The notes beneath the pieces were generated by a model. The model had not been told where the DNA came from. It did not search any database and saw only the letters and a program-made list of their open reading frames with translations. The position numbers and the translations under genes were made by a program. Below are positions 5,423-52,130 of a stretch of 64,000 bases of DNA, in pieces. The DNA comes from Ostreococcus lucimarinus (taxonomy: Eukaryota). Every line of letters starts with the position of its first letter. Position 1 is the first letter of the stretch. The DNA lies in NCBI GenBank assembly GCA_000092065.1, contig CP000594.1, one strand, 5' to 3'.

Positions 5423-5582
5423 TTAGATTGTGATATAACCAAACGACGACACGACGTTAAAGAACCGTAACAAACATCGCGAGTACATGTCGCGACCCGG
5501 GGCGACCACGACTTATGTTCCCTCGTATAGTTGCGTCTTCTCATAGTGATTTGAAGTCGTAAAGTATGAAAAAAGTTGGTGA

Positions 5583-5810: not shown

Positions 5811-5909
5811 GTAACGCGATAGACGTGCGCGCGCCGACGTGTCTTCGTGATGTCTTCGTCTAAATCAGCACTTCACTTTTTATCACAATAGTTGACGACG
5901 ACGACGCGT

Positions 5910-7706: not shown

Positions 7707-7833
7707 GATCGCGGGCGACGACGCGCGCGCGTCGATCGCGTCGGAGTGTGAAGTCGGGCGCGATTAATTTCGACGGCGCGACCGTATTTCGCGGCGCGCG
7801 CGCGCGCGTTCGTTCGCGCGCGATTCGGTTTCG

Positions 7834-8724: not shown

Positions 8725-8768
8725 ACATGTAGAAAATTTGTTGTTATACATATACTTGTACACTTTGA

Positions 8769-9389: not shown

Positions 9390-9595
9390 GATGCGCTGTG
9401 TTTCTTTTCTCGGCCACGCGCGCGTTTTCTTTTGTCCGCCTCTCTCTCGCGCGCGCGTCGTCGAGTGATGCTGGTGCCGCTCGTGACGGATTTAAGGGCG
9501 TGAACACCCGCGTGTAAAAGCAGACACTTTATATAGCACTTTGGGAGGTTAAAAGGTGTCCCAAAGTCTCATACATTGGCCTATACTTTGGCAAC

Positions 9596-9637
9596 ATCCC
9601 GCGCTTTGATTACTGTACAGTAATCAAAGCGCGGGAT
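9596..9637. repeat. 42-bp perfect palindrome atcccgcgctttgattactgt|acagtaatcaaagcgcgggat
   Basis: Read directly. A half-copy (ctttgattactgtacgcggg) at 8763-8785 and a 9+6+9 hairpin (ggcggtgac caggtt gtcaccgcc) at 8800-8823 bound the ~0.85-kb unit containing the MGCCLS pseudogene. Confidence 0.85.
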
Positions 9638-12310: not shown

Positions 12311-12439
12311 AGGGTCAGGTCGCAATTTTGCGTTTTCCCGCTCAGCCTTCACTAGAAACGTGTCTAAACCGGCCACTTTTTAAATCTTGTTTTTTGCTAG
12401 GTTTTTACTGTCTCCGGGTCTCGGAGGAATCGCGTGGAG

Positions 12440-12955
12440 TGACCGGTTATGGGTTTAGTGGTTGGAGGTCCTGTGAGGAACTTTCTCTCCGTCACTTTTT
12501 TTCCATTTTTGAAAAAAAAAACGTCACATGTAAACTTTATAAATAAACCTATAACCTATAACCTATAACCTTGAAGGTTGAAATTTCTTAAGACCCGGGG
12601 TCCGCTGTTAAGGGGGGTCGGAACGCACAGAGAAATCGGGCTCGTCGTCCTGTGTATCAGCAGTCCTGTAGTAGGAAGTCATTTTTTGCTGTTTTGGGCA
12701 TCCCTTGCGTTCAGAGATTCCATTCTGAAGAAATCTTAAGCGAGGGCACCAAAAACTCAAGGTCTCAACGGTCGCACGCTTCAGACTAGTTACATCTTCT
12801 GTACCTCCAAGCAGCGAAGTGCTCCTGTGTGTCAGGTTTGTCTCACCAAACACCGAGATCTTCGAGAAGACGAACACGTTCCGCTGAGAGTTTGCACGTG
12901 CACCTGTCTTCCTTTGCCTGATTTGTGAGCCATCACCCCAGATTTGAATGTGGCG
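12440..12955. repeat. Dispersed repeat R, copy 1 (~515 bp). An inverted partner lies at 46500-47045, ~90% identical.
   Basis: Manual alignment of the reverse complement of 46500-47045 to 12440-12955. It includes the (ctataac)n microsatellite and the spurious ORFs 12608..12877 / 46505..46726. Confidence 0.75.
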
Positions 12956-13013
12956 TATCTTATCGCGACACTCTCGCTTAAGATCTCTTCAGAATGGAAT
13001 CTCTGAACGCAAG
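12704..13013. mobile_element. MITE-like 310-bp unit with 41-bp terminal inverted repeats (cttgcgttcagagattccattctgaagaaatcttaagcgag … ctcgcttaagatctcttcagaatggaatctctgaacgcaag, 40/41). Solo TIR copies at 27029-27069 and 46718-46758.
   Basis: TIRs read directly. No clear target-site duplication. The left TIR and interior are shared with repeat R. Confidence 0.45.
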
Positions 13014-13244
13014 CCGTGGATGTATTAAACTGTGAACGAGGCTAGTCATGGTTCGATTTTTTGGATTACAAGTGTAGGTCTACTTTTACGTTTCGTGGAC
13101 TCCGCTTGAGTCGGCCGATGTCACCACGTCAGGTGTTTCGAGTGCACTAGAGACGTGACCGCCGATACACAGGACGTCGAGCTCGGCGTGCCTGATTTCA
13201 CGACTCGGTGACCATGGTTTGAAACCGAAATGACCATCGGCTTC

Positions 13245-13375
13245 AGGCCCAGGCGCGGCCGCAATGCTACTTTAAACTTAATATATTTTTTTTGAAAAAA
13301 GAGTAGTAAGAGTAATAAAAATAAACTTTTTTTTTGAGTTGGGGCACCCCAACATGATAAAACCGCACATCGCGG
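13245..13375. repeat. Module M: ggcccaggcgcggccgcaatgctactttaaactta…(AT-rich)…gagttggggcaccccaacatgataaaaccgcacatcg. The same module flanks the GIY-YIG gene of the primase element (36335-36540, with an internal 75-bp duplication, and partial at 47175-47210).
   Basis: Direct comparison. It contains the inverted repeat ttgggg-ca-ccccaa. Confidence 0.7.
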
Positions 13376-13837
13376 CGAGCCATGCGCGACCATCAATTTG
13401 ATGTCATGTCTAGTCAGGCTCTCGTGGTAAAAACGTAAGATGTGCTTATTACAGCATATGCCAATTGCGCAGTAAATCTCGAAGGACGACATCAAACATA
13501 TCACAGAGCGCGCGCTTCACACCGTACAACACCATCTAAGGTACTTTCGACCGACGTTTTAGGCAATTTTGACTCGCCGACTGGTCTTTTCCAGTTGTGA
13601 CGTCAGATTCGATACGATACTGGGTTACGATGCGTTGAGTTGGACTGTAGAGGCCTGTACCCTTACATGCACATCTTCCATGGAGCGCTGGAGAAAAGGC
13701 ATTGTTGCATAATTATTGTCAAAATATAGATATTTTAATTTGACGCCACCATTATTAACTTTAAAATCAAGCCAGATCGCGACGACACTGAACATTTGAA
13801 TGTGTATTCACACTTGAGAGACACTGGTTTCGGCAAC

Positions 13838-26946: not shown

Positions 26947-27234
26947 ACAGTACAATTTTGTCATACCTACAGTCGCAAGCAAAAACGCCACATTCAAATT
27001 TGGGCGTCCCGCTTAAGATTTCGGTACCCTCGCTTAAGATTTCTTCAGAATGGAATCTCTGAACGCAAGGCGTGAAATCACTTAGCCATCCTGCCCGAGT
27101 CTGACGAAAGTAGCAAAGTAGCACTTTTTGCACGCCTCCCAAAGGTGGCCCCTGGGGAAATTATTTATTTTGTGGAGTGGTGAAAAATAAAAATTCCCAC
27201 TGGATACCTTCTGGGACACTGCTTTTTTGCTACT

Positions 27235-28644: not shown

Positions 28645-29145
28645 TTAAAAACAGCACCAAATATTTTTTAAACAGCACCAACATTTTTTATAGTCGGTTT
28701 CATCGGTTTCCTCGATGGTCGAGCCTAGTTCCAGTTCACCGAGGAGCTGCTCGTCTTCTTCATGCAACCACGGTTCGTCCGCGCGTCCAGGCACAACGTT
28801 CGGACACTGGTTCACAAAATGGCCCAACTGACCACACCTGAAGCATCGATCACCCGCACCTCGCATCATGAGTTCGATAATCTCGAGGTGCGATCTCGGG
28901 AGAACGATCTGACTGAACGTCCCACCGCGTACGTTCTCAACGCCGTGTTCGGCCATGAGTCGTAACACGTGCTTGTCCTCGTCAAATGGTCCACATTCCT
29001 CGATGAACAGTCGACGGTACGGTTTGTATTTTTTCGTCCACGCGGCACCCATGCCGCGAAAATGGTCGTCGATCCTCGACCTGTTGTCGCACCGCCCCAC
29101 GTAGTATTTGCCCTGCGCACACGCGAGGCCGTATATCAGTGACAT
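28645..29145 (-). CDS. GIY-YIG nuclease domain protein with a CCHC zinc knuckle and a Cys-rich C-terminal tail
   Basis: ATG confirmed. GIY-YIG: LIYGLACAQGKYYVGRCDNRSRIDDHFRG. Knuckle CFRCGQLGHFVNQC (CX2CX4HX4C). C-terminus KKCWCCLKNIWCCF. Confidence 0.5.
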   Translation of the reverse strand: MSLIYGLACAQGKYYVGRCDNRSRIDDHFRGMGAAWTKKYKPYRRLFIEECGPFDEDKHVLRLMAEHGVENVRGGTFSQIVLPRSHLEIIELMMRGAGDRCFRCGQLGHFVNQCPNVVPGRADEPWLHEEDEQLLGELELGSTIEETDETDYKKCWCCLKNIWCCF

Positions 29146-29873
29146 GATCCATGTGGTCTAGTGCCCCCGGGCCGTCGTCGCGCGCGCCGCGGTGTGCGGG
29201 GGCACGCAGACCAGCGGCGGCGGTCGAGTCGCAGATGCGTCCATCACTGACGTCGAACGAGAATCGGGATCACCCGTGGGTCCGTTGGCGCCCCGCGGGT
29301 GTGTGTGTCAGCCCTCAGGATAACCAGCCGCGCGAGGATCAAATCAAACATGGACCCGAACTCGCGGGTGTCGACACGGTCGGTCGGACATATGGAGCCT
29401 CACAATTTGGCCGTATGACCACATATATTAATTTATGTATGGCTATCATCCCGTGCTATCCCGGGGGTAAATTACAGTACAGTAATCTATACCCGGGATA
29501 GCGCGGGCTGAATAGAATAAATCCAGTAATATACGTTGTTTTTTGGTGTTGCACATTTTTTTAGTGTTACACCGCGCGTGCAAGCGACACTTCGTCCCGC
29601 GGTGGCGGAAGTTCTGTCATCTATAGAAAGCGATCTTCACCATTGATCAGTTCGATTAGCTCTGTTCTTTGAGCGTACTCATTATTCTTGGATCACTTAA
29701 ATAATCTTAAGCGGTGACAGAAAAAACAAAATTTTGGTGATTTTGGTGATAATCCGACCGACCGAACAACACGCGCGCTCGAACGAACGTCGAGTGTTAC
29801 GCCATCATTCGTCCGCGCTCTTGCACGTGAACTCGAGGCACCGACGAAAGAAAAATCACCACATAATCGCCCG

Positions 29874-33499: not shown

Positions 33500-34073
33500 T
33501 GTAGATGTTGGTATAATTGCAGTTACCTCGACTACCGCTACATCATGCTCATGTTTGTTTTAAGTTCCTCTTCGAATCGAACGGTGCTCGGGTAATGCTC
33601 GGCGACCGGCGGCTCCTCAGAAATTTCTCCAGGTTCGTCAGAAGGCTCTTCAGATTGAACTGGATTCTTAACTATGATATTGTATGGTGTACCATCGGAC
33701 ATCGCGCGCAATATATTGGACATAACTTTTCATACTTAAAGGGGAGCCGCGTGATACACGAGGGACCATCTCACCACGAAGAAATGGGCACCTCTGGTAC
33801 CGAAAAACGTGGCACCCTCGTTCACGCGCGACCACTCTTGAGCCATGAACGGGAGCGACCCATCAAAGGAGACACGCGCACACCGATTCTCGACCACCCG
33901 TCTTCGCCGTGTGCTTTGCAGTACCCCGATCTCGTCGAAAAAGTAGCAAAATGTTGACCAGTGGGGCGTGCTGGCGTGCTTTTCCAGGCTGTTGAAAAAC
34001 TTGAAAATCAGTCATCGCGCCGATGTGACCAGGAAAAACACGGCTTAAAGAATTCTTTTCTTATGTGATATAT

Positions 34074-35345
34074 ATGGACGCCAGAGAATTTACGAACGGC
34101 ATGCATCTGATCCCACTCGACCAGGACAAGGAACCAACATGCGGCAGGGGGTTCCTCGATGAAGCAAACTATGAACAGAACACGCAGAAAGTCATCCCAG
34201 GAGAAATGTACGGCGTGCTGACAGGGCGACCGAACCGTGTCCTCGTCGTCGACTGGGATTGTTACGGTGGCAAGTGCGAGTTTGAACTCACGGAAGAAAT
34301 GTTGACGCGCAAGGTTGGCGGGGAAGGCGCGTACATCGTCAAAACGCGATCAGGCGGGTACCACACGTACTTCGCATGGGACGAAGAACGAGTCGGCGAT
34401 TGGAAAGGCACAGTAGGCATCGAAGGGTTCGTCGATATCCGTACGACGGGTAACTACGTGGTCGGTGCCCATGCCCCGGGCTACGAGCTACTCCGAGGAG
34501 ACATCAACAATTTACCACCAATGCCCAACGATTTGTACAGTTTCTTTGATGGCAAAGTCGGTCACAAGGTCGAACGCGCCGACACGGAGTGCAGCTTTAC
34601 GCAAGCATCTGTGACACCTTTGCTCGAGGACATGGGGTTCACCGGCATACATTGGCTCAGTGGAGCGACATCGTATGATTTTGAATGCGACCAATGTCGC
34701 CCACAGCGAGGCACCTCTGTGGGCCAATGTCCTTGCTGTGGGGGCTTCCACGAAGGCAATGGAAAGGGCGGCGGGAACCACTTTTACGTCGCCGAGGTCG
34801 GCCTCGGCGTGCTCACCGTGAAAAACCATGGCAACTGCAAGCCCAGGCAGTTTCGCTTTGAGGTTGGGTGTCTGGTGACCGGTATCACCGAAAAGGAGCA
34901 GAACGAAATCAAAGAGGGCACGTCTGCGGGCTACATCGAGGTCCGCCGTGAGTTCGAGAAGCACGTCGCAAAGATCTTGACCAAGGACCTCTTCTGCGAC
35001 GATAGCTGTTATGGAACCACCGGGGAGATCGCCAAATTCAGCGAGGCCGCTTTGGTGAGGCGCTATCGAGAACTCTCCTTTGTCGATGAGAACGGCGCGT
35101 CCGATGAGCGTCTTGCTCACGGTGCAACCGTCCTGTTGGACCTTGAACTGAATTTTGGCGAAAGAGAGAAAGTCCTCGGGATCATTTGTCTTTTCAAAGA
35201 GCGCATTCAGACGGTCGCAGAGGTCGTCGTTCTCCGCCCATTCGGCGATGCTCTTCCTCACTGCATCGGGCGCGACGGGCTTCGTCGCCTCGTACGCCTT
35301 GAGGAGCAGCGAACGCGAAACGAACCGGTGATATATATATATTAA
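34074..35345 (+). pseudogene. Truncated primase-helicase. The Prim-Pol domain is intact for ~330 aa, then it diverges into unrelated sequence and terminates, with no helicase domain.
   Basis: The first ~330 aa are ~98% identical to the 48183..50384 protein (DWD, SGGYH, VDIRTTG motifs). The track start 34065 is a GTG and the ATG is at 34074. The divergence point at ~35105 coincides with a 36-nt segment also found at 47118-47153. Confidence 0.6.
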
Positions 35346-35415
35346 GTAAAATTTGGCTATTGAGTCTTCATATGGGAAGCGTACCGATTACAAATTTCTA
35401 CTTCTGGCCCATCAC

Positions 35416-36132
35416 TTACTCAGCTGACTGGCACGAGGTGTACAGGTTCGCTGGGTCGTCCACCTTGACGAACTCGTACTTCGCGTGAGGGCTTATGGTA
35501 CCGGGGAAAGAGCACTCTTGCTTGCCACCCTTATCTTGACAGTACTTGTTCCGCTGCTGACTATAGATGGAGGTCTTGCCGTCTGCCAGCGTGGCGAGAG
35601 TAAACTTGGCGCCGACGAAAATTTCTTCGCCCTCAGCCTCCTTCGGCACGTCACACATAATTAGAGTCTTCCTCCATCCCGGGGGACCACGACTGAGGGT
35701 GTCATCAGCGTCCGTCGCGCAACGGAACTCGGCACCCGTCTCGTCCAAGCGAGTGAGGGTGTAAAAATTGCCCTCGTTCTTCAGGTACACGAGCTTTGGA
35801 GCGTTGTTCGCCGCCGAGGGATCCTCAGACGCAACGCATCGCTGCGAACAGGCGAAGCCCCACTGTCCATTTCCAGCGGTTCCGATGTTATAGTTGCAGA
35901 AGTTTTGATTCATCATGTTAGTCCCATACTTCGATGGGACCCAACCCCCTCGCATCAAGTACGCTCCGTCCTCGAGCGTCGCGCCTTGGCCGAGCGTCGG
36001 AAAGTGTGTTGAACCGACTCCCACGAGCGCGACGACACCGAGACAAGCGATCACGAGCGTTTTACCTCGGCGCACGTCGCTCGCCGCCTTGGCCGCGCGC
36101 ACTTCATCGCGCAGAGGCGTCGATTCGTCCAT
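35416..36132 (-). CDS. Hypothetical type-II membrane protein (cytoplasmic N-terminus, TM LVIACLGVVALVGV, Cys-containing lumenal domain)
   Basis: The track ORF starts at TTG 36270 and the first ATG is at 36132 (MDESTPLRDEVRAAKAASDVRRGKTLVIACLGVV…). It sits inside the rearranged element copy A. Confidence 0.35.
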   Translation of the reverse strand: MDESTPLRDEVRAAKAASDVRRGKTLVIACLGVVALVGVGSTHFPTLGQGATLEDGAYLMRGGWVPSKYGTNMMNQNFCNYNIGTAGNGQWGFACSQRCVASEDPSAANNAPKLVYLKNEGNFYTLTRLDETGAEFRCATDADDTLSRGPPGWRKTLIMCDVPKEAEGEEIFVGAKFTLATLADGKTSIYSQQRNKYCQDKGGKQECSFPGTISPHAKYEFVKVDDPANLYTSCQSAE

Positions 36133-36583
36133 CGAATTAGTGTTGAGCGAACCCCTTCCGGCTGCTGTTTCGATCCCGTCGACCACGATTAACGACGCGC
36201 GTGTTTCACTCGTGCGTCCGACGCGCTTTTTCCCGACGCGGTTCCCGACTGCACTGACGTGCGTCGTCAAGTGCCTCGTCGTCGAGGGTGCTCGAGTTTT
36301 ACTTTTACTGTTGACGCGCCACGTCGGATTCCGACAGGCCCAGGCGCGGCCGCAATGCTACTTTAAACTTAGTATATTTTTTTTGAAAAAAGAGTAGTAA
36401 GAGTAATAAAAACAAACTTTTTGCTACTTTAAACTTAGTATATTTTTTTTGAAAAAAGAGTAGTAAGAGTAATAAAAACAAACTTTTTTTTGAGTTGCGG
36501 CACCCCAACATGATAAAACCGCACATCGACGTCGATGTACCACATGTAAGATTTCTCCAGAACCAATCGTGTGAGTGAAGTGG

Positions 36584-37081
36584 TCAAACCAAGCCACGCA
36601 ACTCGTCTACCGTAAATTGATACTTGTCGAGACTGCGCTTCGAAGGCAGCGTGCCGCGCGCTCGAGCATTCTTGAGGCACGTCTTACGCAGTATTCTTTT
36701 CGCGTGCTGCTTGTAATAATTGAGTTGTCTGTAGTTACCATCGCCGCCGTCCCGCTTCGGCGTATATTTAGCTCTGCCAAGGGTTCGACTCTCGTCCACG
36801 TTCTCGTGGCACGTGTGTTTCTGGCTGAGTCCAGCAGCTCGGGAGTTGAATAAGCCGTCACGCTTCTCTCTCATGTAGGCACTTTTACGTTGATGGAGCT
36901 CTCCAGCTGGAATGTCCTTTTCGAGAACTCTCACGTTCGCGTCGCCAAACTTGAAGATTGGATGCCGTGCGTATTTATGCGAGGCAAGGCGCGCTCTGAG
37001 CGAACCTGTCGTCGATCCGATGTACGTTTTGTTACATTTTGCATTATCGCTAAACATTTCGTACACGCATCCCGACGGCAT
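36584..37081 (-). CDS. GIY-YIG nuclease (165 aa), element copy A
   Basis: ATG confirmed. CVYEMFSDNAKCNKTYIGSTTGSLRARLASHKY is a GIY-(10)-YIG-type motif with a downstream R…H…E. It is 95% identical to 47262..47759. Confidence 0.55.
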   Translation of the reverse strand: MPSGCVYEMFSDNAKCNKTYIGSTTGSLRARLASHKYARHPIFKFGDANVRVLEKDIPAGELHQRKSAYMREKRDGLFNSRAAGLSQKHTCHENVDESRTLGRAKYTPKRDGGDGNYRQLNYYKQHAKRILRKTCLKNARARGTLPSKRSLDKYQFTVDELRGLV

Positions 37082-37689
37082 TTGTCCTGGTCACCTATCT
37101 ATCCCTAAGAAAATATAGTTGCCAAAAGTGCTCCTCTTGCGGTTTGCAGTCACATTCGAGAGATCATAGGTGCTCGTGTTGCTGCGTGGGGTGCAAGGTC
37201 TGGGATGTAGATATCGAACCGCCTGATTTCACACCTGGACGTTCGTGATCCGACGAGACCTGACGAAATGACGAACTTGTTTTGTCGTCCCCAAATTCGT
37301 CAGCCCGTCGTTCGGTCACACTTTGTGTGTACCAATGATGAAAATGACGAAATGTTAAAATATTTCAATGTTTATTTTTATTTTAGATCTATGAAAAGCA
37401 ACAGTGTAGACCTTTATGAAAACAGTTCGTCATTCGTCATTTCGTCAGGATCCAAACCATGGTCTTTTTGGTGTCTTGTTGAGTCTTCATATTGCAAATG
37501 TACGAATCACAAAATTAGTATGAACACCAGACGACCGCCGGCGCGAGCTCCGTCTCCCCCGTTTACCCATTGTCCTTCAGCCACTCGAAGCACCCGTCGC
37601 GGTCAATTTCCCAATAGACGCCATTCTCGTCCCTAGCTTGCCTCAGGTGGTCCTCTTAATACACCAAAAAGTAAATGCAATTATGGTGT

Positions 37690-37870
37690 TTCATTATTCC
37701 ATACGAGTACCCCAGAACGACGAGTCGTGACCCATACGGTAAAAATATCACGTCCCGCCGGTCCGGTCCCCATAGTATATAGAATTTATACAATTCAGCC
37801 CGCGTCATTACGGGGGTACAGTAATCTATGTGTCCGACATTAAACTCGATTTTTGCTAGGGTTTAGCGTC
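37690..37870. repeat. Repeat upstream of DUF285 gene 1, partner at 51885-52000. Sequence: cgagtaccccagaacgacgagtcgtgacccatacggtaaaaatatcacgtcccgccggtccggtccccata…attcagcccgcg … gtacagtaatct … ctagggtttag.
   Basis: Direct comparison. It contains the interstitial plant-type telomere motif TTTAGGG. Confidence 0.7.
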
Positions 37871-38366
37871 CCCGGTGTCCCGCGCGCGCATGCGTTGGCG
37901 CCGTCGACACTCGTCGACGCCCCGGCCCGCGGTCGTTCGCGTCCACACGGTTCAAGTAGTGCCCTTGGACGACGAACGTGCGCTTGTGCACCCTTGCGCG
38001 GATGAAGTGCGTTTCCATCGTGCGTCGCCGCCGTTCGGTCCTTTAAGGGCGACCGTAGCGCAACCGGGCGATCTCCGTGCGGACGGCGCGATGCCGGCGT
38101 ACGCATCGCAAGGAGTGCACACCGGGGGCACTGCGCCATTCGCGACGTACCGTGCAGCACAACACGCGTTTGCAACGCCAGACGGCATGCATTGGCGCGG
38201 TGGACGCAGCGTTTCATTGAAAATTGCGCGCAGCACTAGTGGGCAAAGCGGCTCGTTGGCACCCCAACGGGTCTTAAACACAATACTTGTTTTGTTCGGA
38301 TACTCGCCCAGGGATCTAGACACACGTGAGGGTAGTCGAAGGGCTAGCGTCCGGTGCCAAAAGAAC

Positions 38367-41300
38367 ATGCTCTTTGCTACGGCCACGTGGATGCTGCTAT
38401 TGCTCACGTCGTTTGTCGATGGGGCAATAGTAGACCGCGACGCTTTGAAAGTTGCAGTGGACAACTGTTTGGCGGCAAATGCCACTGGTAACTGCGATTG
38501 TAGCAGTGACTCTGTGGACTGCGGTACCGCTGGAAGTCTTCCCATCTCGCAGTGGGATACGAGCCGCGTGAACGATATGAATAGACTATTCAGCAACCAG
38601 GGTTCATTTAACGCGAATATCTCCGCGTGGGACGTGAGCGGCGTGACGGACATGACTCGAATGTTCGAGGGCGCTAATAGTTTCGCTCAGGACATCAGCT
38701 CGTGGAACGTGGTGAACGTCACGAGCATGGACACTATGTTCTATCGCGCGGATGCGTTCAACGCGCCCATCGGCAGTTGGAACACAGACGGCGTGACAAA
38801 CATGTTTCAGATGTTCCACTCAGCACATTTGTTCGATCAACCGATCGGAAGCTGGAACACGGAACGGGTGACGACCATGCAGTGTATGTTCATGTATGCG
38901 CGTGAATTCAATCAGGATATCAGCTCCTGGAACACGGCCAACGTGGTAAATATGTGGGATATGTTTTATAGTGCGGATGCGTTCAACCAGAACATTGGGT
39001 CATGGAACACAGAGGAGGTGACGGATATGAGGTACATGTTTTATAGTGCGGATGCGTTCAACCAGAACATTGGGTCATGGAACACAGAGAAGGTGACGGA
39101 TCTGAGCGGAATGTTTCAGGGCGCAGCGGCGTTCAACCAGGACATTGGCTCATGGAACACAGAGGAGGTGACAGACATGAGCGGAATGTTTCAGGGCGCA
39201 GCGGCGTTCAACCAGGACATTGGTTCATGGACGACGACGTCGGTGAAGAACATGGAGAGCATGTTCGAGGATGCGACGGCGTTCAACCAGAACATTAGCT
39301 CCTGGAACGTCAGTGCCGTCACAGACTTCGATCGGATGTTCTACACAGCGACCGCCTTCAACAAAGGCATAATCACCACGAAAACGACATGGACTGGCGC
39401 CACCGGCGCGTCCGCGACAGACATGTTCTCCGCCGCCACGGCGTGGCTGCAGAGGTATGAGTACACGACGAATCCCAGCGGAAGCGTCGTGAATGGTCCC
39501 GCGTCGGCTTGGAGTGTGAAGAAGTGTTCGTCCAATCAGTACGTTTTGAGCAACACATGCAAGGCGTGTGCCTCTGGCAAATTTCGCAGTGCTGGTGACG
39601 ACCCTGATGGCTCCAATACGGCGTGTACGTACGCGTCGCCGTTTGCTTCAAATACCCAGCTGAAAGACACGATCGAGTCTTCGTACTGCTTGGGAGGCAG
39701 CGACGCCACGGGCGCGAATTGCACGGACGGCAAGGGTATGTATATAGCGCAGTGGGATACGAGCTTGATCACGGATATGAATCACTTGTTCTACAACAAA
39801 ATTTCATTCGACGCCAATATCAGCACGTGGAACACGGCGAAAGTGACAAAAATGGATAGCATGTTTTCTCAAGCACGTGCATTTAACCAGAGGATTAATG
39901 AATGGAATACATCGAGCGTGGTGACAATGGAAGCTATGTTCCGCTACGCCGAGTCCTTTGACCAGCCCATTGGTGAGTGGAATACCGGAAGAGTCACCAA
40001 TATGAAAGACATGTTTTCGCAGGCGTCTGAATTCAATCAGAATATCGGTAATTGGGATACATCGAGTGTGACGACGATGGATACTATGTTTCGCTACACC
40101 GAGTCCTTTAACCAGCCCATTAGTGAGTGGAATACCGGAAGAGTCACCAATATGAAAGACATGTTTTCGCATGCGTACGCATTCAATCATTCAATCGGTG
40201 ACTGGAACACGGGTGCCGTGGAGAATATGGAGCTTATGTTCCAAAATACCGGCGTTTTCAACCAGGACATCAGCAGTTGGAACACGGCGGCGGTGACTCA
40301 GATGGACTCAATGTTTTACGGTGCTTCAGCCTTCAATTATGACATCACTGGTTGGAGTTCAGCAAGCCTTACGTCGTCGACGGACATGTTTCTCTCCGCG
40401 ACGGCTTGGCTGGCGAGGTACAAGAACACCGCCTCCCCAGGTAGCAAAAATGGGCCATCGTCGAACTGGCTCGGTCCCGGTCCGTTCACGACCAAGTCGG
40501 CGTTGGAGACCGCTACATGGAACTGCTTGGCGGGGAGCGCCGATGCCGATGGCAACTGCGACTGTACGACCGTCGATTGTGGCGCGGCGGTGTATGAATC
40601 GATTTCGAACTGGAACACGAGTTTGATCACGGACATGACCGGTTTGTTTGAAGGTAAGTCTTCATTCAACGCGAATATCGGCGGATGGAACACGGGGAGC
40701 GTCACAAACATGCACCAGATGTTTAACGGCGCGACTGCTTTCAACCAAGACATCGGTTCTTGGGATGTCTCGGATGTAGCGGACATGTATCAAATGTTCG
40801 GTAGCGCGTCCTCGTTCAATCAAAACATTGGGTCGTGGAACACAGGCAGTGTGACGGATATGAGCGGTATGTTCATGAATGCATCTGCGTTTAACCAGCC
40901 CGTTGGTGACTGGAACACAGGCAGCGTCGTGGATATGAGCGGCATGTTTGAGAGCGTGTCTGCGTTTAACCAGCCCATTGGTGAGTGGAATACCGGAAGA
41001 GTCACCAATATGAAAGAAATGTTTTCGCAGGCGTCTGAATTCAATCAGAATATCGGTAATTGGGATACATCGAGTGTGACGACGATGGATACTATGTTTC
41101 GCTACACCGAGTCCTTTAACCAGCCCATTAGTGAGTGGAATACCGGAAGAGTCACCAATATGAAAGACATGTTTTCGCATGCGTACGCATTCAATCATTC
41201 AATCGGTGACTGGAACACGGGTGCCGTGGAGAATATGGAGCTTATGTTCCAAAATACCGGCGTTTTCAACCAGGACATCAGCAGTTGGAACACGGCGGCG

Positions 41301-44300
41301 GTGACTCAGATGGACTCAATGTTTTACGGTGCTTCAGCCTTCAATTATGACATCACTGGTTGGAGTTCAGCAAGCCTTACGTCGTCGGCGAGCATGTTTC
41401 TCGACGCGCCGGCTTGGCTGGCGAGGTACAAGAACACCGTCGCCTCTGGTAGCAAAAATGGGCCATCGTCGAACTGGCTCGGTCCCGGTCCGTTCACGAC
41501 CAAGTCGGCGTTGGAGACCGCTACATGGAACTGCTTGGCGGGGAGCGCCGATGCCGATGGCAACTGCGACTGTACGACCGTCGATTGTGGCGCGGCGGTG
41601 TATGAATCGATTTCGAACTGGAACACGAGTTTGATCACGGACATGACCGGTTTGTTTGAAGGTAAGTCTTCATTCAACGCGAATATCGGCGGATGGAACA
41701 CGGGGAGCGTCACAAACATGCACCAGATGTTTAACGGCGCGACTGCTTTCAACCAAGACATCGGTTCTTGGGATGTCTCGGATGTAGCGGACATGTATCA
41801 AATGTTCGGTAGCGCGTCGTCGTTCAATCAAAACATTGGGTCGTGGAACACAGGCAGTGTGACGGATATGAGCGGTATGTTCATGAATGCATCTGCGTTT
41901 AACCAGCCCGTTGGTGACTGGAACACAGGCAGCGTCGTGGATATGAGCGGCATGTTTGAGAGCGTGTCTGCGTTTAACCAGCCCATTGGTGAGTGGAACA
42001 CAGGTAGCGTGGCGGATATGAACGGTATGTTCAGGAGCGCATCCGCGTTTAACGAGCCCGTTGGTGCATGGAACACAGGCAGCGTGACGGATATGAGCGG
42101 CATGTTTGAGAGCGTGTCTGCGTTTAACCAGCCCATTGGTGAGTGGAACACAGGTAGCGTGGCGGATATGAACGGTATGTTCAGGAGCGCATCCGCGTTT
42201 AACCAGCCGATTGGTGAGTGGGCCACAGGAAGCGTGGCGGATATGAGCGGCATGTTTGAGAGTGCATCCGCGTTTAACCAGCCGATTGGTGAGTGGGACA
42301 CAGACAGCGTGACGGATATGAGCAGCATGTTTGAGAGCGCGTCTGAATTCAATTATAACATCACTGATTGGAGTTCAGCTAGTCTCACGACGGACATGTT
42401 TCTCGATGCGACAGCTTGGCTGGGAAGATTTGCACGCAAAGATGGCGAAGACACCACTGATGGCCCACCATCCAAGTGGGGCGAACCGTGTGGCAATGAG
42501 TGGTACGATGCGACCTTTGAGGAGAAGTGTGAGCCAAGAGTGAACGGGATTGAAGTGAAAGGATGCAATTCTACGTGCGGGATAAAAGACAACTGGCGGT
42601 GCGACAATTTCGACTTGCTACGCCCCCCCGGTGATGACTTAGATAGCTACAATTGTACGTGCGACAACCCGGCGGGCACGTACGCATCGCCTGATCTTGA
42701 TTGTGCTCGCACAGATTGCATTTACGGCGAGCGGTGTCTCGCTAACGGCCTAGGCTGTGCGCCCGGTGCCGGTGGAAACGCATGCGACCGGTGTTTGACG
42801 GCCGCTGATATTGCCGAGCTTCCACTCAACGAACGAAGTCTCAGCAAGAATGGCTATTACAAGACTGGGCAGATGTGCACGGCTTGTCCAGAGACATCGG
42901 CTGGTCAACTTTTCGCTGCGGCTGCGGTTGTCGTCGTCCTCGCTTTTTGTGGTTTCAAAGCCTCTCAATTGATGGGCGCTCAAGCGACGAACAATTTGAA
43001 GAAAATTGTCGAGTCGCTGCAGTTCTTCTCTCTTTCGCTCAGTATGAGTATCAAGTGGCCTGGACCCGTACTCAATCTCGGTAAATATTTGGAAGCTTTC
43101 ACGTTCAGTATTGAGTTTCTACGACCCGAATGCGTCGCTACGGGGCTGAATTGGCTCAATATATTTTTGTCCTCAGTGTTTTTCGTTCCCGCTCTCATCT
43201 TCATAATCATCGTCGTGAACAATAGACGGGCGAAGCACCGTTACAAAACAACGGTGCGCGCGATCGACAGTGAACGACACGAGGATGGCGAAACAGTCTA
43301 CTGGATCAAGAAACCAGGTTTCTTGTGGGGTACGCGGAGAGCTTACGAGTCCAAGGGTGGAGATAAGATTGTTCGCGAGTTGCAGCGCCAGTATCGGTTT
43401 CGAGCCGCGCTTCGATCTTTCGGCGTACTGTCGCTGACCGTCCTATACCTTCCCATCGTGCGTATGTGCCTTCAGTCATACGATTGCATAAAGATAGACG
43501 GCGTGGATGGGCTTCGATTGGAGCATGACATAGATATCCTCTGTGAAAGCGAAGGGCACGTGATCATCCAGGCCGCCGCCGCGGTGATGTTGGCCATTGT
43601 CGGTATCGGCATGCCAATTTACGTCATAATGCAAGTTCGTAAGATCCGTTTGAGCGGTAAACTGGATGATCCACAGACTATCGACTCGTATGGTCCGTTC
43701 TACGACGTCTACCGGCGCGAGGAGCTCACACACGATCACAAATTGGAGATTGCGAGCATTCGACAAACCGCGGTCGAGTCGTCCTCATTTCGACGAGGCG
43801 AAGGCACGAGCGACGAACGTCCTTTCGATGCAGCAACTGATGATATTGCAGAAGAAATCGCAAATGAAGCCAGGGTCGATACGGAAGAAGATTCAAGCGA
43901 CGTTGATCGTGTTGACGTCGAGGACGATAGTGATACTCCACCACCTCAGAAAGTTGCATCCGGTCTCGGTAAGCTCGCTCGGGCGTTAACGATGACGAAG
44001 TCTGCTTTAGGCCGGACGACGTCAGCGAAAGCGCGCGAACGGGCACATCGAATGCACTGGAAGGACAGGTTCGCGCTTCACTACCTGGCCGTTGAACTAG
44101 TGCAGAAGAGTTGCGTCATTTTGACGACGTCTCCGCTAGTGGCCGAAACCGCGGTGAGCGGTTGGGCTCTGGTTGTCGTACACTGGTTTACCGGCGCCTT
44201 CGTCTACGTGTGTCAGCCTTGGCGCATCATGACGCTCGGCTTCGGCAAATACAAGGTGCGAAATTGCTTAAACAAAGTCGAGTCCTTGGCTGGATTTTTG

Positions 44301-44597
44301 CAGGGCGTGGGACCGTTCTTGGCGATGATCTTCCCTGTTCAGAGAAACGAGTTGGGCGAGGTGAAGCAAACTGTGACACTCTCAGCCATAACTGTCCTGC
44401 TGACCATCATAATCACCGGGCTGCTTTCTATTCGTATCATTGTTTTCGTCGGCGAACGCGTCGCCGTCAAACGAAAGAAGATGGACATTGACAAGGATCC
44501 CGAGAAATGCATGCAAAATGTTCACAAACAACTGGTCAAGCTCGCAACCAACAGAGCGATTGTGAGCATGTTGCTTTCAAGGCAGATTTCGACATAA
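38367..44597 (+). CDS. Giant (~2,076 aa) membrane protein. It has a signal peptide, >30 DUF285-type repeats (F-x-x-A-x-x-FNQ-x-I-x-x-W-N/D-T-x-x-V-T-x-M-x-x-MF), Cys-rich EGF-like modules, a multi-TM C-terminal region and an acidic tail.
   Basis: The track ORF starts at GTG 37875. The signal peptide [19 protein letters not shown] begins at ATG 38367. Example repeats: [33 protein letters not shown]…, [20 protein letters not shown]…. TMs [68 protein letters not shown]. Confidence 0.65.
   Translation: [2076 protein letters not shown]
39961..41976 (+). repeat. 1008-bp x2 near-identical (>99%) in-frame tandem duplication (336 aa = 13 DUF285 units) inside DUF285 gene 1
   Basis: ORF pairs are offset by exactly 1008 nt (40321..40626/41329..41634; 40337..40786/41345..41794). 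A direct read of 39961-40180 versus 40969-41188 shows 1-2 differences. Confidence 0.85.
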
Positions 44598-46399: not shown

Positions 46400-46499
46400 T
46401 ATAGCGGTCGTCTACGAGGAATACACGCATAGTCTAAACATGACCATCCTGTTGGAGAAGGAGCTGAGTTTCCGCTTCGTTACGGATGAGATTGTCGCG

Positions 46500-47045
46500 A
46501 GGAGATGAGCCTTCAAATTCGGGGCGATGGCTCACAAATCAGGCAAGGGAAGACAGGTGCACGTGCAAACTCTCAGCGGAAAGAGTTCATCGTCTCGAAG
46601 ATCTCGGTGTTTGGTGAGACAAACTCGACACACAGCAGGAGCACTTCACTGCCTGAGTGTACAGAAGATGTAACTAGCCTGAAGCGTTCGACCGTTGAGA
46701 CCTCAAGTTTTGGTGCCCTCGCTTAAGATTTCTTCAGAATAGAATCTCTGAAAGCAAGGGATGCTCAAAGCAGCAAAAATGACTTCCTACTACGGGCCAC
46801 ACAGGACGCCGAGCCCGATTTCTCTGTGCGTTCCGACCCCCCTTAACAGCGGACCCTTGGGTCTTAAGAAATTTCAACCTTTAAGGTTATAGGTTATATA
46901 GGTTATAGGTTTATTTATAAAGTTTACATGTGACGTTTTTTTTCAAAAATGGAAAAAAAAGTGACGGAGAGAAAGTTCCTCACAGGACCTCCAACCACTA
47001 AACCCATAACCGGTCACTCTTCCTCGCCCCGTTCTTTGATACACG
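46500..47045. repeat. Dispersed repeat R, copy 2, inverted relative to 12440-12955
   Basis: See 12440-12955. Confidence 0.75.
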
Positions 47046-47261
47046 TTCGCCCCACGACGGTTCGACCTGAAATTTTTTTCGGTTTGGCTTCGAACCCGAG
47101 CTTGGTCAGCGCGCGTCCGATGAGCATCTTGCTCACGGTGCAGCCGTTAAAAATATCAACTTTTTTGTTTCAGTTGGGGCACCCCAACATGATAAAACGC
47201 TCATCGACGTTGATGTACCGCATGTACGATTTCTTCAGAACCAATCGTTCGAGTGAAGTGG

Positions 47262-47759
47262 TCAAACCAAGCCACGCAACTCATCTACCGTAAATTGATA
47301 CTTGTCGAGACTGCGCTTCGAAGGCAGCGTGCCGCGCGCTCGAGCATTCTTGAGACACGTCTTACGCAGTATTCTTTTCGCGTGCTGCTTGTAATAATTG
47401 AGTTGTCTGTAGTTACCATCGCCGCCGTCCCGCTTCGGCGTATATTGAGCTCTGCTGTAGGCCAGACTCTCGTCCACGTTCTCGTGGCACGCGTGTTTCC
47501 GACTGCGTCCAGGAACTCGGGAGTTGAATACGCCGTCGCGCTTCTCTCTCATGTATGCACTTTTACGTTGACGGAGCTCTCCAGCTGGAATGTCCTTTTC
47601 GAGAACTCTCACGTCCGCGTCGCCAAACGTGAAGATTGGATGCCGTGCGTATTTATGCGAGGCAAGGCGCGCTCTGAGCGAACCTGTCGTCGATCCGATG
47701 TACGTTTTGTCACATTTCGCATTATCGCTAAACATTTCGTACACGCATCCCGACGGCAT
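47262..47759 (-). CDS. GIY-YIG nuclease (165 aa), element copy B
   Basis: ATG confirmed. CVYEMFSDNAKCDKTYIGSTTGSLRARLASHKY…. Confidence 0.6.
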   Translation of the reverse strand: MPSGCVYEMFSDNAKCDKTYIGSTTGSLRARLASHKYARHPIFTFGDADVRVLEKDIPAGELRQRKSAYMREKRDGVFNSRVPGRSRKHACHENVDESLAYSRAQYTPKRDGGDGNYRQLNYYKQHAKRILRKTCLKNARARGTLPSKRSLDKYQFTVDELRGLV

Positions 47760-48182
47760 TTGTCCTGGTTACCTGTCTATCCCTAAGAAAATATTGTTGT
47801 CAAAAGTCCTCCTGCTGCGGTTTGCAGTCGCATTCGAGAGACCGTATCGCTGCGTGGGCTGCAAGGTCTGGGATGTAGATATCGAACCGCCCGATTTCAC
47901 ACCTGGACGTTCGTGATCCGTCGAGACCTGACGAAATGACGAACTTGTTTTGTCGTCCCGAAATTCGTCAGCCCGTCGTTCGGTCACACTTTGTGTGTAC
48001 CAATGATGAAAATGACGAAATGTTAAAATATTTTAATGTTTATTTTTATTTTAGATCTACGACAAGCAACAGTGTAGACCTTTATGAAAACAGTTCGTCA
48101 TTCGTCATTTCGTCAGGATCCAAACCATGGTCTTTTCGGTGTCTTGTTGAGTCTTCATATTGCAAATGTACGAATCACAAAA

Positions 48183-50384
48183 TTAGTATGAACACCAGAC
48201 GACCGCCGGCGCGAGCTCCGTCTCCCCCGTGTACCCATTGTTCTTCAGCCACTCGAAGCACCCGTCGCGGTCAATTTCCCAATAGACGCCATTCTCGTCC
48301 CTACCTTGCCTCAGGTGGTCCTCGCGCATTGGGATCCTGTGGCCCTTTTCCTTCTTGAAGAAGTCCTTGAGCTTATTGCCGACCCTGGTCGCGCTATCTT
48401 GACCGCGCGTAGCCGCTGGCAACCACGTCTGGTATTCGATGAAGATGTCACTGTTGCGGATTTTATTTCCAACCCACTTCTCAGGGAATTCAACAGTGAC
48501 GCAATGCTCAAACCATCGAGTGAACTTGGGCATGCAGCCACGCTTCATTTCCGAATACGCGTCGGTCGTAGGTCTGTCTTTCACGTAGTCAAAAGTCGAT
48601 AGGTCGAGCCCCATGAGGTGGTCGTAGATCGCCCTCAAGTTCCTCAGATCCTTGATGTACACGTCGCGGAATTCCTTCAAGAATCCAGTCTGGTCGTTCA
48701 AGTGCGTGAGCAGTGGCTCCATAACGACGAACCGACGATCACTCATTTCCAGAAAAACGGGGTAGTCGTCGTTCGAGAAAAATAGGAACCCAACCAGATT
48801 CATGATGACGTACAGCTGCACGTGCTTCGGGTTGATTGTGAAACTCGTGTCCGTGAGCATCGATTTCAGCAACTTTCTATACATTTTCATGATGCACTCA
48901 TCTGCTTCGTTCAACGCGAGACACTTTTTGCCTTCAATCATGTTCGCATGCGTCCCAAATATGTCCTTTTTCGGATCAGCCGTCTCATGAAACGTCTTGC
49001 CCATGAGCGCATGAAGCAGGTGCAGGAAAGTGCCCTTGCCGGTACCTTGGACTCCTCGAAACACGAGCGACGTGATCGGCTTCTCTTCGGGTCTCTGGAA
49101 GAGACACGCGAACCAATTCAAAGCGTACTCGAGCGCATTTTCTGAACCGCCACATAGCACCAGGAGGAGCTCGAGGAAAGGCTTTACGTCGCCCTCTTTG
49201 CCCAGTTCACTGGGGATGCCTTCGACCGGATAGCCTCGCCACAGATTGTACGTCTTGTTGCTGCAGTTTTTCGGGACGACATCGAGGGTATCGTACACCC
49301 GTTTATTGTCGTCGTCGAGCCACTTTTCGATGAACCCGTTCTTCTTGCCTTTCCTCAAGACACCGTTCTCATCGACAAAGGAGAGTTCTCGATAGCGCCT
49401 CACCAAAGCGGCCTCGCTGAACTTGGTAATGTCCCCGGTGGTTCCATAACAGCTATCGTCGCAGAAGAGGTCCTTGGTTAAGATCTTTGCGACGTGCTTC
49501 TCGAACTCACGGCGGACCTCGATGTAGCCCGCAGACGTGCCCTCTTTGATTTCGTTCTGCTCCTTTTCGGTGATACCGGTCACCAAACACCCAACCTCAA
49601 AGCGAAACTGTCTGGGCTTGCAGTTGCCATGGTTTTTCACGGTGAGCACGCCGAGACCGACCTCGGCGACGTAAAAGTGATTCCCACCGCCCCTTCCATT
49701 GCCTTCGTGGAAGCCCCCACAGCAAGGACATTGGCCCACAGTGGTGCCTCGCTGTGGGCGACATTGGTCGCATTCAAAATCATACGATGTCGCTCCACTG
49801 AGCCAATGTATGCCCGTGAACCCCATTTCCTCGAGCAAAGGTGTCACAGATGCTTGCGTAAAGCTGCACTCCGTGTCCGCGCGTTCGACCTTGTGACCGA
49901 CTTTGCCATCAAGGAAACTGTACAAATCGTTGGGCATCGGTGGTAAATTGTTGATGTCGCCTCGGAGTAGCTCGTAGCCCGGGGCATCGGCACCGACCAC
50001 GTAGTTACCCGTCGTACGGATATCGACGAACCCTTCGATGCCCACCGTGCCTTTCCAATCGCCGAATCGTTCTTCGTCCCATGCGAAGTACGTGTGGTAC
50101 CCGCCTGATCGCGTTTTGACGATGTACGCGCCTTCCCCGCCAACCTTGCGCGTCAACATTTCTTCCGTCAGTTCAAACTCGCACTTGCCACCGTAACAAT
50201 CCCAGTCGATGACGAGGACACGGTTCGGTCGCCCTGTCAGCACGCCGTACATTTCTCCTGGGATGACTTTCTGCGTATTCTGTTCATAGTTTGCTTCATC
50301 GAGGAACCCTCTGCCGCATGTTGGCTCCTTGTTCTGGTCGAGTGGGATCAGATGCATGCCGTTCGTAAATTCTCTGGCGTCCAT
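48183..50384 (-). CDS. Primase-helicase. N-terminal bifunctional Prim-Pol domain plus Cys-rich Zn-binding segment, central/C-terminal D5-like SF3 helicase (Walker A GVQGTGKGT, Walker B LALNEADE, motif C FFSND), ~733 aa.
   Basis: The track start 50393 is a GTG. The ATG is at 50384 (MDAREFTNG…). Prim-Pol motifs VLVIDWDCYGG (DxD), RSGGYHTYF (sGGxH), VDIRTTGNYVVG. Zn segment CDQCRPQRGTTVGQCPCCGGFHEGNG. Confidence 0.75.
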   Translation of the reverse strand: MDAREFTNGMHLIPLDQNKEPTCGRGFLDEANYEQNTQKVIPGEMYGVLTGRPNRVLVIDWDCYGGKCEFELTEEMLTRKVGGEGAYIVKTRSGGYHTYFAWDEERFGDWKGTVGIEGFVDIRTTGNYVVGADAPGYELLRGDINNLPPMPNDLYSFLDGKVGHKVERADTECSFTQASVTPLLEEMGFTGIHWLSGATSYDFECDQCRPQRGTTVGQCPCCGGFHEGNGRGGGNHFYVAEVGLGVLTVKNHGNCKPRQFRFEVGCLVTGITEKEQNEIKEGTSAGYIEVRREFEKHVAKILTKDLFCDDSCYGTTGDITKFSEAALVRRYRELSFVDENGVLRKGKKNGFIEKWLDDDNKRVYDTLDVVPKNCSNKTYNLWRGYPVEGIPSELGKEGDVKPFLELLLVLCGGSENALEYALNWFACLFQRPEEKPITSLVFRGVQGTGKGTFLHLLHALMGKTFHETADPKKDIFGTHANMIEGKKCLALNEADECIMKMYRKLLKSMLTDTSFTINPKHVQLYVIMNLVGFLFFSNDDYPVFLEMSDRRFVVMEPLLTHLNDQTGFLKEFRDVYIKDLRNLRAIYDHLMGLDLSTFDYVKDRPTTDAYSEMKRGCMPKFTRWFEHCVTVEFPEKWVGNKIRNSDIFIEYQTWLPAATRGQDSATRVGNKLKDFFKKEKGHRIPMREDHLRQGRDENGVYWEIDRDGCFEWLKNNGYTGETELAPAVVWCSY

Positions 50385-50695
50385 ATATATCACATAAGAA
50401 AAGAATTCTTTAAGCCGTGTTTTTCCTGGTCACATCGGCGCGATGACTGATTTTCAAGTTTTTCAACAGCCTGGAAAAGCACGCCAGCGCGCCCCACTGG
50501 TCAACGTTTTGCCACTTTTTCGACGAGATCGGGGTACTGCAAAGCACACGGCGAAGACCCGAGAGATCAGCAGATCGACGAACTCCGCAGTGAGCTCAGT
50601 GACATCGTGTCAAGACTGGAGGCGGTGGAGAGCGCCTAATCATCGTTTTTCTATATCGCGCCATTCGTGGACAACAAAATATACGTCCACATATA

Positions 50696-51786: not shown

Positions 51787-52130
51787 TTGTCGATTTTTAA
51801 CACGTTTACAGTGGAACCTCTGCGGTTTTTGACGCCTAAACCCTAATTTCTAAACCCTAATGTGTAAATACGAGTACGACGTTTCATTAACCCATACGAG
51901 TACCCCCGAACGACGAGTCGTGACTCATACGGTAAAAATATCACGTCCCGCCGGTCCGGTCCCCATATACTATGGAATTTATGCTATTCAGCCCGCGCAA
52001 ACAGTCGGGTAGATTACTGTACAGTAATCTACCCGTATCTTACTGTACAGTAATCTGTGCGCGGAATCAGTAATCTGTACCCGGAATGACGCGGGATGTG
52101 GCGTAATCTATACCCGACATCCCGTGTTCT
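51760..52130. repeat. Composite repeat: interstitial telomere-like motifs (ctaaaccctagc; taaaccctaatttctaaaccctaatg), a copy of the 37.7-kb repeat, then palindromes gggtagattactgt|acagtaatctaccc (52029-52056) and ttactgtacagtaa
   Basis: Read directly. 51760-51792 is the reverse complement of 37835-37862. Confidence 0.75.

Follow-up and report, generated by a model that had tools for sequence, protein, structure and literature searches.

A 37-nucleotide sequence shared by two rearrangement junctions in Ostreococcus lucimarinus is most probably the overlap of two truncated copies of a decayed helicase gene

A segment of 37 nucleotides occurs twice in a 64-kb stretch of the Ostreococcus lucimarinus genome (here called the window; all copy counts apply within it). 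The first copy, J, starts exactly where primase copy A ceases to match primase copy B; the second copy, J', adjoins R, a repeat block of 1.18 kb, at its left edge (R at 47148-48323 matches 36473-37655 at 94% identity). What is a sequence doing at two separate junctions? A sequence-only reading of this DNA had taken the segment for a preferred recombination or target site, possibly the recognition site of a GIY-YIG protein. A different answer is given here. The 37-mer very probably has no function of its own; it is the overlap of two independently truncated copies of one gene, H, beside a primase/GIY-YIG cassette in a rearrangement-prone region.

The window is nuclear DNA of O. lucimarinus CCE9901 and lies in a low-GC region. 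Six ORFs of the window have identical database proteins, five of them with O. lucimarinus CCE9901 accessions in a 708,927-bp record. The first ~9 kb have a GC content of 60-74%, which then drops to about 51%; the low-GC 'outlier' regions reported from Mamiellales have a similar boundary (10.1101/2025.04.21.649811). Positions of the features discussed are given in Table 1.

Table 1. Positions and main characteristics of features in the 64-kb window
Feature	Positions	Strand	Description
Third relic locus	12437..13378		last few bases of H, then region D (12437-12975, +); J lost
Primase copy A	33900..35095	+	upstream region and first ~343 codons (PrimPol part) of a PrimPol/SF3-helicase gene
H fragment 1	35095..35319	-	75 codons, ..SLLLKAYEATKP...DGCTVSKTLIGR; truncated at both ends; 98.7% identical to L003 1020-1243
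J, copy 1 of the 37-mer	35095..35131	- (coding strand)	left edge is the junction with primase copy A
ORF284	35416..36270	-	284 aa, no family match; between H fragment 1 and R at locus 1
AT-rich repeats, 66-67-nt unit	36335..36488		flank the left end of R; unit also at 13244-13331
R copy 1	36473..37655	-	palindrome GTTGCGGCACCCCAAC; GIY-YIG-like ORF 36584-37081, 165 aa; primase 3' remnant
Region D, downstream of H	46488..47019	-	continuous with H fragment 2; third copy inverted at 12437-12975
H fragment 2	47014..47147	-	last 44 codons and stop, NGCTVSKMLIGRALTKLGFEAKPKKISGRTVVGRTCIKERGEEE (stop)
J', copy 2 of the 37-mer	47111..47147	- (coding strand)	right edge is the junction with repeat block R
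R copy 2	47148..48323	-	94% identical to copy 1; GIY-YIG-like ORF 47262-47759; true 3' end of primase B
Primase copy B	48183..50393	-	intact, 733-736 aa

The shared segment is real, and self-BLAST of the window extends it to 37 nt, with 35/37 identical positions (94.6% identity, E 1e-8). A 35-mer search finds 35097-35131 at zero mismatches and 47113-47147 at two; these are the sole two occurrences in the window, and 100 dinucleotide-preserving shuffles contain no match. The limits of ~35105-35150 and 47118-47153 that had been proposed for the two copies are off by several bases (Table 1). Both copies are oriented on the plus strand of the window, as direct repeats 12 kb apart; since the two primases lie on opposite strands, J and J' are opposite in orientation relative to them. 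The second copy had been placed immediately outside the 3' end of primase copy B. It lies 1,036 nt beyond the stop codon of that gene (position 48183), and the 165-aa GIY-YIG-like ORF of R copy 2 (minus strand) is situated between the two. An exact search of IMG/VR viral contigs with the 37-mer gave no match, nor did an Rfam scan of the 37-mer region; no unusual DNA secondary structure is found in this region, with z about -1.4 on either strand.

The minus strand reveals what the segment encodes. Both copies read ..DGCTVSK(T/M)LIGRA.., from the C-terminal region of H. J translates to ..(D)GCTVSKTLIGR(A) of this helicase pseudogene; of the two substitutions in J', one changes Thr to Met and one is synonymous. 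At the first locus (locus 1), the minus strand reads ..KAYEATKP..FKVQQDGCTVSKTLIGR and then breaks; the longer reading, ..SLLLKAYEATKPVAPDAVRKSIAEWAENDDLCDRLNALFEKTNDPEDFLSFAKIQFKVQQDGCTVSKTLIGR, switches abruptly to antisense primase. At the second (locus 2), it starts straight after R with NGCTVSKMLIGRALTKLGF..GEEE and the stop codon. Locus 1 retains H upstream of the 37-mer as well as the 37-mer itself, while locus 2 retains the 37-mer, the final 31 codons of H and the stop. On these readings, the two loci are complementary halves of one frame which overlap in the 37-mer.

In marine metagenomes, the two halves of H are found joined. A composite peptide of H, used as query, recovers the metagenome protein P0042 (168 aa), to which 95% of its length aligns at 100% identity, together with many variants. 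A scan of JGI metagenomes for the 37-mer core gave 11 contigs. ENA, Tara and JGI assemblies were also queried by exact look-up with proteins derived from H and with primase proteins, which added more contigs; the set comprises 21 loci (L001-L021). In L003, window positions 35319-35095 align at 1020-1243 and window positions 47147-46762 align at 1207-1592; the overlap between the two alignments is exactly the 37-mer. H fragment 2 together with its downstream DNA is 98.5% identical to L003 1207-1592. L003 is not a chimera formed through the 37-nt overlap, because it was assembled at k=119 and continues into upstream gene sequence which is missing from the window. The same contiguity of both halves of H is seen, independently, in L008, L016 and L021. 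J and J' are therefore alike because both descend from one coding sequence, the 3' part of H. The possibility that the 37-mer occurs at many unrelated loci, raised in the sequence-only reading, is not borne out; each occurrence found is a piece of H.

H is a decayed D5-like (D5_N and SF3) helicase gene, and the 37-mer is part of its C-terminal coding sequence. L004 carries a more complete but frameshifted copy with a D5_N domain (E 2e-9). A composite of L004 and L003 matches D5_N (E 2e-9 to 3e-9), DUF5906 (weakly) and the SaPI5 primase-helicase 7ola (E 4e-4); the window fragments correspond to residues 456-529 and 516-559 of this composite, in the C-terminal region. PHROGs, NCBIfam and PDB sequence searches with the C-terminus of H alone gave nothing useful. 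H resembles the D5-like/P4-type primase-helicases of large DNA viruses, virophages, polinton-like viruses and bacterial islands in its D5_N domain, SF3 core and C-terminal region. Unlike these, it is decayed in every copy seen. The Walker A motif in the SF3 helicase core of L004 reads GNSGLGT, in which the Lys is gone; frameshifts are common, and the copies in L004 and L016 are split over several frames.

The primases of the window resemble the same group. Primase B matches Pfam DUF5906 (E 2e-14) and the PHROG DNA primase family of phages (E 5e-31), and its homologues carry the Prim-Pol domain PF09250. Look-ups of the exact product of primase B gave none on record, and no relatives of it were found in IMG/VR. 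Among the ORFs tested, none was identified as encoding a capsid protein or another viral hallmark. In the literature searched, an H-type gene beside a primase/GIY-YIG cassette was not found for Ostreococcus.

No part of H other than the two fragments was found in the window. This rules out the simple form of a model in which the cassette was inserted into H. The two fragments each end at a junction of their own, and the histories of these junctions can be considered separately.

At junction 1 (35095/35096), primase A sequence ..GTCGATGAGAACGG runs into H sequence CGCGTCCGATGAGC.., with 1 nt of microhomology, a single G common to both parents. From its sequence, this junction looks like an end-joining of H to an inverted partial primase copy. 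Copy A is an inverted partial duplicate of copy B (50558-49363, minus strand) and is 97.4% identical to it over 1196 nt. The 37-mer had been regarded as lying inside the primase ORF that was disrupted there. It is not part of that gene by descent; ORF 34065-35345 simply runs on beyond the breakpoint through foreign DNA, the antisense of H.

Junction 1 recurs base for base in L009, L010, L013 and L015. In L010 and L013 it is followed by ORF284, AT-rich repeats, R and a complete primase, and the segment 37656-47147 is absent. This order indicates that copy A is an extra, inverted partial duplicate and not the flipped 5' part of the neighbouring gene. An inversion model, in which copy A was the flipped 5' part of a primase once located after the R of locus 1, was rejected, since L010 and L013 hold copy A and a full primase after R. 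ORF284 is 100% conserved in L010, L013 and L015 and is missing from locus 2; PHROGs, NCBIfam and PDB sequence searches with it gave nothing useful. No contig was found that contains the direct precursor of junction 1 (ORF284, AT-rich repeats, then H through its stop codon).

Junction 2 (47147/47148) recurs with both J' substitutions in L006 and L014. Both junctions are thus reproduced in independent metagenome assemblies, at 97-100% identity, and are therefore real and inherited rather than assembly errors. This bears on the simplest explanation of the 37-mer, namely that the two copies resemble each other by chance or through faulty assembly. That explanation would fit the presence of just two copies in the window; it is extremely improbable given the BLAST and shuffling results above, the recurrence of both junctions in other assemblies and the location of both copies in frame within fragments of the same gene.

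The history of junction 2 is recorded in a JGI contig, L008. This contig matches locus 2 across the aligned junction stretch, from the end of R through ..AAAAAAGTTGATATTTTTA; it then has 102 additional nt before it rejoins locus 2 at ACGGCTGCACC.. These 102 nt comprise what remains of the AT-rich unit and then H, starting from ..CDRLNALFEK; subtracting them from L008 gives locus 2. An AC dinucleotide is present at both sides of the deleted stretch, the compared flanks are identical except for one SNP, and L008 carries one of the two J' substitutions. Of the AT-rich unit, only about 19 nt are left at locus 2, beside J'. This comparison indicates that the GIY-YIG block came into contact with the 37-mer secondarily, through a microhomology-type deletion, and that the earlier overlap with locus 1 was about 128 nt. 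The earlier AT/H junction of L008 is also present in L005 and in the proteins P0050, P0051 and P0062.

L008 also bears on the proposal that J and J' were produced by a single event, either as an att core (attL/attR) or as a long target-site duplication around a 12-kb insert (35132-47110). Like such sequences, J and J' are two short direct copies 12 kb apart, each at a junction of unrelated sequences. The order primase A - J - upstream H ... downstream H - J' - R formally fits integration of a circle which carried an intact H. This proposal is largely refuted by L008, which implies that the lineage of locus 2 earlier overlapped locus 1 by ~128 nt, as opposed to 37. In addition, the segment 37656-47147 is missing from L010 and L013, in which R and a full primase follow junction 1, and the empty site, primase A - J - R, is found in 0 of the 21 related loci. 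For a target-site duplication, the order of the flanks is wrong. J and J' differ at 2/37 positions, and the repeats around them have diverged to a similar degree (3-6%). The ORFs tested between the copies (35416-36270, 36584-37081, 37268-37636, 37875-44597 and 44507-46399) have no Pfam match to a recombinase or transposase, and no terminal inverted repeats bounding the primase/GIY-YIG cassette were found. A single event of either kind is very unlikely.

Across the 21 loci, H homology ends at no fewer than eight upstream positions (1020, 1036, 1116, 1123, 1188, 1195, 1207 and 1335 in L003 coordinates) and at least four downstream positions (1243, 1266, 1335 and 1385), spread over >300 nt. H is contiguous across the 37-mer in L003, L005, L008, L016 and L017-L021; the sequence just downstream is lost in L005, where H is broken 22 nt downstream of the 37-mer, and in L017-L020. 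It is broken upstream of the 37-mer by 14 nt in L011 and L012 and by 21 nt in L007. Internal deletions of H (22 nt in L017-L020 and a larger one in P0058) and several frameshifts are also observed. R or its AT-rich flank meets H at five or more positions: 1020 via ORF284, 1036 via another flank, 1116/1123, ~1150 (in P0056) and 1207 (L003 coordinates). Since end positions are scattered in the 21 loci, the breaks are scattered; together with the internal deletions and frameshifts, this is the pattern of a decaying pseudogene. By our own estimate, two cuts made independently in a remnant of ~320 nt would leave 1-37 nt of overlap with a probability of about 0.11.

Three of the upstream boundaries (L003 1188, 1195 and 1207) fall close to the upstream edge of the 37-mer (within 20 nt) and could hint at a fragile spot. 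A breakpoint hot-spot at the 37-mer was considered and rejected; the boundaries are scattered, and the trio is not significant for eight points over about 315 nt. The sample is also biased towards the edges of the 37-mer, because the DNA search demanded the 37-mer core.

Relics of the same kind are seen elsewhere in the window. At the third relic locus, the 60-nt left end of R and the AT-rich unit are present at 13244-13378, beyond the inverted copy of region D. R itself includes the last ~140 nt of a primase gene; in R copy 1, this primase 3' remnant (about 37515-37655) has an in-frame stop. The sequence-only reading was correct in locating the 37-mer at rearrangement breakpoints and in implicating the primase/GIY-YIG repeat in the rearrangements.

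The remaining candidate for an active role is the GIY-YIG-like protein. The two 165-aa ORFs in the window are XP_001421473 and XP_001421474, named 'GIY-YIG domain-containing' in UniProt. Their score against the Pfam GIY-YIG family is 17.1 bits, which is below the cut-off of 22.6; PF01541 is nevertheless found in homologues at 48-63% identity. Sequence searches of PHROGs, NCBIfam and the PDB with the 165-aa ORF gave nothing useful. In an AlphaFold model (16 sequences, a shallow alignment, pLDDT 69), the best PDB match is 1mk0, the I-TevI catalytic domain (probability 1.00, E 0.022), and the next structural matches are UvrC, Slx1 and R.Eco29kI. The GIY, YIG, Arg and Asn motifs are present in the alignment of the ORF. 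On the basis of the model, both ORFs are predicted to possess the GIY-YIG fold.

Glu75 is a catalytic residue of I-TevI. In both window copies, and in relatives of at least 85% identity, the position paired with Glu75 appears to be Lys (..QRKSAYM..); the pairing comes from an hhalign alignment of weak support (E 0.061). In the homologues at 48-63% identity, the equivalent position is Glu (..KREGEYI..). Judged from these residues, the GIY-YIG proteins of the window may be catalytically impaired.

Could the 37-mer region nevertheless be a present or past cleavage or recognition site of the adjacent GIY-YIG endonuclease, the junctions having been made by repeated breaks and end-joining? The ORF belongs to the GIY-YIG family, by its PF01541-bearing homologues and its structural match to I-TevI (E 0.02). 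J' abuts the GIY-YIG block in locus 2; remnants of H lie beside the block or its AT-rich flank in loci 1 and 2 and in L005, L008 and L017-L021; and several distinct breakpoints fall within about 50 nt of the 37-mer. A specific version of this explanation can be stated. The 3' end of H, by the 37-mer, would have been a recurrent double-strand-break site of an ancestral, Glu-bearing GIY-YIG endonuclease, and the junctions in the population would be footprints of misrepair. That enzyme would have been encoded next door, in a primase/GIY-YIG cassette spreading within the low-GC regions of Ostreococcus.

The evidence makes both the general explanation and this version of it improbable. The adjacency in locus 2 is not primary, since by the L008 comparison it results from the later 102-nt deletion. 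The block or its flank joins H at five or more positions without one fixed insertion point, and the far side of the cassette is without any 5' part of H. The 37-mer is intact within contiguous H in several contigs, and the clustering of breakpoints beside it is statistically non-significant and drawn from a biased sample. Furthermore, the predicted Lys at the Glu75 position, in the window ORFs and their close relatives, would speak against cleavage by these proteins, Glu being present in the more distant homologues. The suggestion that the 37-mer is the recognition site of the GIY-YIG protein is not upheld on these grounds (the scattered joins of H, the secondary adjacency in locus 2 and the apparent Lys in both window ORFs).

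A comparison with the sites of free-standing GIY-YIG homing endonucleases (T4 seg/mob and the I-TevI family) leads to the same view. As in those systems, a small ORF of GIY-YIG fold is located between replication genes, and a neighbouring gene is disrupted. Unlike those systems, the cassette here has neither a fixed insertion point nor a conserved pair of flanks, the adjacency of the 37-mer is secondary, and the window copies appear to carry Lys for the catalytic Glu. The comparison with att cores and target-site duplications extends only to the direct copies at junctions; it fails in that no empty site or recombinase is found, the flank order does not suit a target-site duplication, and the overlap recorded in L008 was longer before the later deletion.

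Independent truncation of two H copies is very probably the correct explanation, and a history of the region can be proposed. In the ancestral module, the primase was probably followed by the GIY-YIG ORF, an AT-rich spacer and H, in this order. The module would have been duplicated several times in a low-GC region of the O. lucimarinus chromosome, and the non-functional copies of H would then have been trimmed independently. At locus 1, the 3' end of H was presumably lost when it was joined to the inverted partial primase copy; the 1 nt microhomology at 35095/35096 fits end-joining. Locus 2 would have been formed in two steps. Firstly, the AT-rich flank of the GIY-YIG block would have been joined to H at a point about 90 nt upstream of the 37-mer, as it still is in L008 and L005. 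Secondly, the 102-nt deletion between two AC dinucleotides would have placed the block against the 37-mer. What is observed directly is that both fragments match one contiguous gene, along with the sequences at the junctions, the intermediate state in L008 and the scattered break positions; the sequence in which the events occurred, the mode of repair and the gene order of the ancestral module are inferred.

The 37-mer explained as a relic is an already known kind of phenomenon. In pseudogene relics at end-joining or microhomology junctions of segmentally duplicated regions, the repeated pieces are likewise non-functional fragments of one gene family, as J and J' are. Junction microhomology is 1-2 nt in both cases, and paralogous and population copies show varied truncations, deletions and frameshifts. 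In both, the repeat exists by descent and not by function; there is no essential difference. The 37 nt are the residue common to two independent truncations of H, and the claim of a preferred recombination or target site does not stand. Because the 37-mer fails as a target of recombination or of a nuclease, the finding is of little importance in itself; it is a worked example of how an apparent 'shared junction motif' can arise from two truncated fragments of paralogous pseudogenes.

According to a preprint (10.1101/2025.04.21.649811), transposable elements are scarce in the low-GC outlier regions of O. lucimarinus. Yet the low-GC stretch considered here bears a repeated primase/GIY-YIG cassette and, with it, remnants of a second helicase of D5-like type. 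In marine metagenomes, the cassette exists in many structurally different forms; this polymorphism may be of interest for studies of structural variation in picoalgal genomes.

The module of primase gene, GIY-YIG ORF, AT-rich spacer and decayed D5-like helicase gene (H) has left a third relic in the window, in two parts (see table). The segment 12437-12975 consists of the extreme end of H and the region downstream of it; 13244-13378 consists of the left 60 nt of the ~1.18-kb repeat block R together with an AT unit, the AT-rich repeat that adjoins the left end of R. The mutual orientation of these two parts is inverted relative to that in five metagenome contigs from Tara and other ENA assemblies (L017-L021). 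The places where a dispersed motif, CTCGCTTAAGATTTCTTCAGAATGGAATCTCTGAACGCAAGG, is found include the DNA downstream of H, and several metagenome contigs contain it too.

The primase gene is likewise found as a third fragment, which is truncated at 37655/37656, the same point at which R copy 1 ends. Within the gene lies a near-palindrome, AACTGC-AAGCCCAG-GCAGTT (34833-34852). In contig L007, H is joined to the primase gene at this near-palindrome via an inverted 15-nt snippet with AACTG microhomology; this join looks like the product of template switching. In two further contigs (L009 and L015), a 120-bp tandem duplication ends at the position equivalent to 34843.

Features of the window by type, position and strand
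Feature	Position	Strand	Remarks
C/D-box snoRNA snoR117	3860-3939	-	Rfam, 43.4 bits
Perfect tandem duplication	5634-5722, 5724-5812		89-nt unit
Palindromic motif TTACTGTACAGTAATC	9605-9637, 29467-29499, 52009-52067		recurring; intergenic, low-GC part
Third module relic	12437-13378		primase/GIY-YIG/H
Dispersed motif CTCGCTTAAGATTTCTTCAGAATGGAATCTCTGAACGCAAGG	12704-12744, 12973-13013, 27012-27070, 46702-46759	both orientations	~40-60 nt
Giant intron-free ORF, 3958 aa	15070-26946	+	G8 and CEMIP beta-helix domains
GIY-YIG ORF fused to CCHC zinc knuckle	28645-29145	-	second small GIY-YIG ORF; Pfam zf-CCHC E 1.5e-6, GIY-YIG E 3.5e-4
GIY-YIG-fold ORFs, 165 aa	36584-37081, 47262-47759	-	one in each R copy
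Third primase fragment	37515-37655	-	last ~47 codons, in-frame stop
Giant intron-free ORF, 2240 aa	37875-44597	+	13 DUF285/PARCEL repeats, 75-nt periodicity
Giant intron-free ORF, 3830 aa	52438-63930	-	DUF285, TSP1 and PAN domains

In both 165-aa GIY-YIG-fold ORFs, the residue that aligns with I-TevI's catalytic Glu75 is Lys; Glu is kept at the equivalent position in homologues with 48-63% identity. The 90%-identity cluster of these ORFs has 898 metagenome members. The small GIY-YIG/zf-CCHC ORF is unrelated to this pair. Its counterpart in contig L005 (3869-4360) is flanked by two divergent primase/GIY-YIG cassettes.

Base composition changes abruptly near 9600: GC is 60-74% in the first ~9 kb and ~51% thereafter (1-9600 versus 9600-64000). 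This step resembles the edge of a Mamiellales low-GC outlier region. Two proteins encoded here each have two O. lucimarinus accessions lying ~35 genes apart: the poly(A) polymerase (5910-7706, - strand; ABO99724/ABO99758) and a 689-aa DOMON-domain protein (9731-11800, + strand; ABO99547/ABO99582). These double accessions imply a large segmental duplication in O. lucimarinus that includes the GC boundary.

The C/D-box snoRNA is the sole Rfam match at the gathering threshold in the 64-kb window. The start of the tandemly duplicated 89-nt unit resembles a tRNA 5' half (GGGGTCTTAGCTCAGTGGTAGAGCGGTTGACTGCAG..); neither ARAGORN nor Rfam makes a call for the unit. One possibility is a tRNA gene that is split or permuted.
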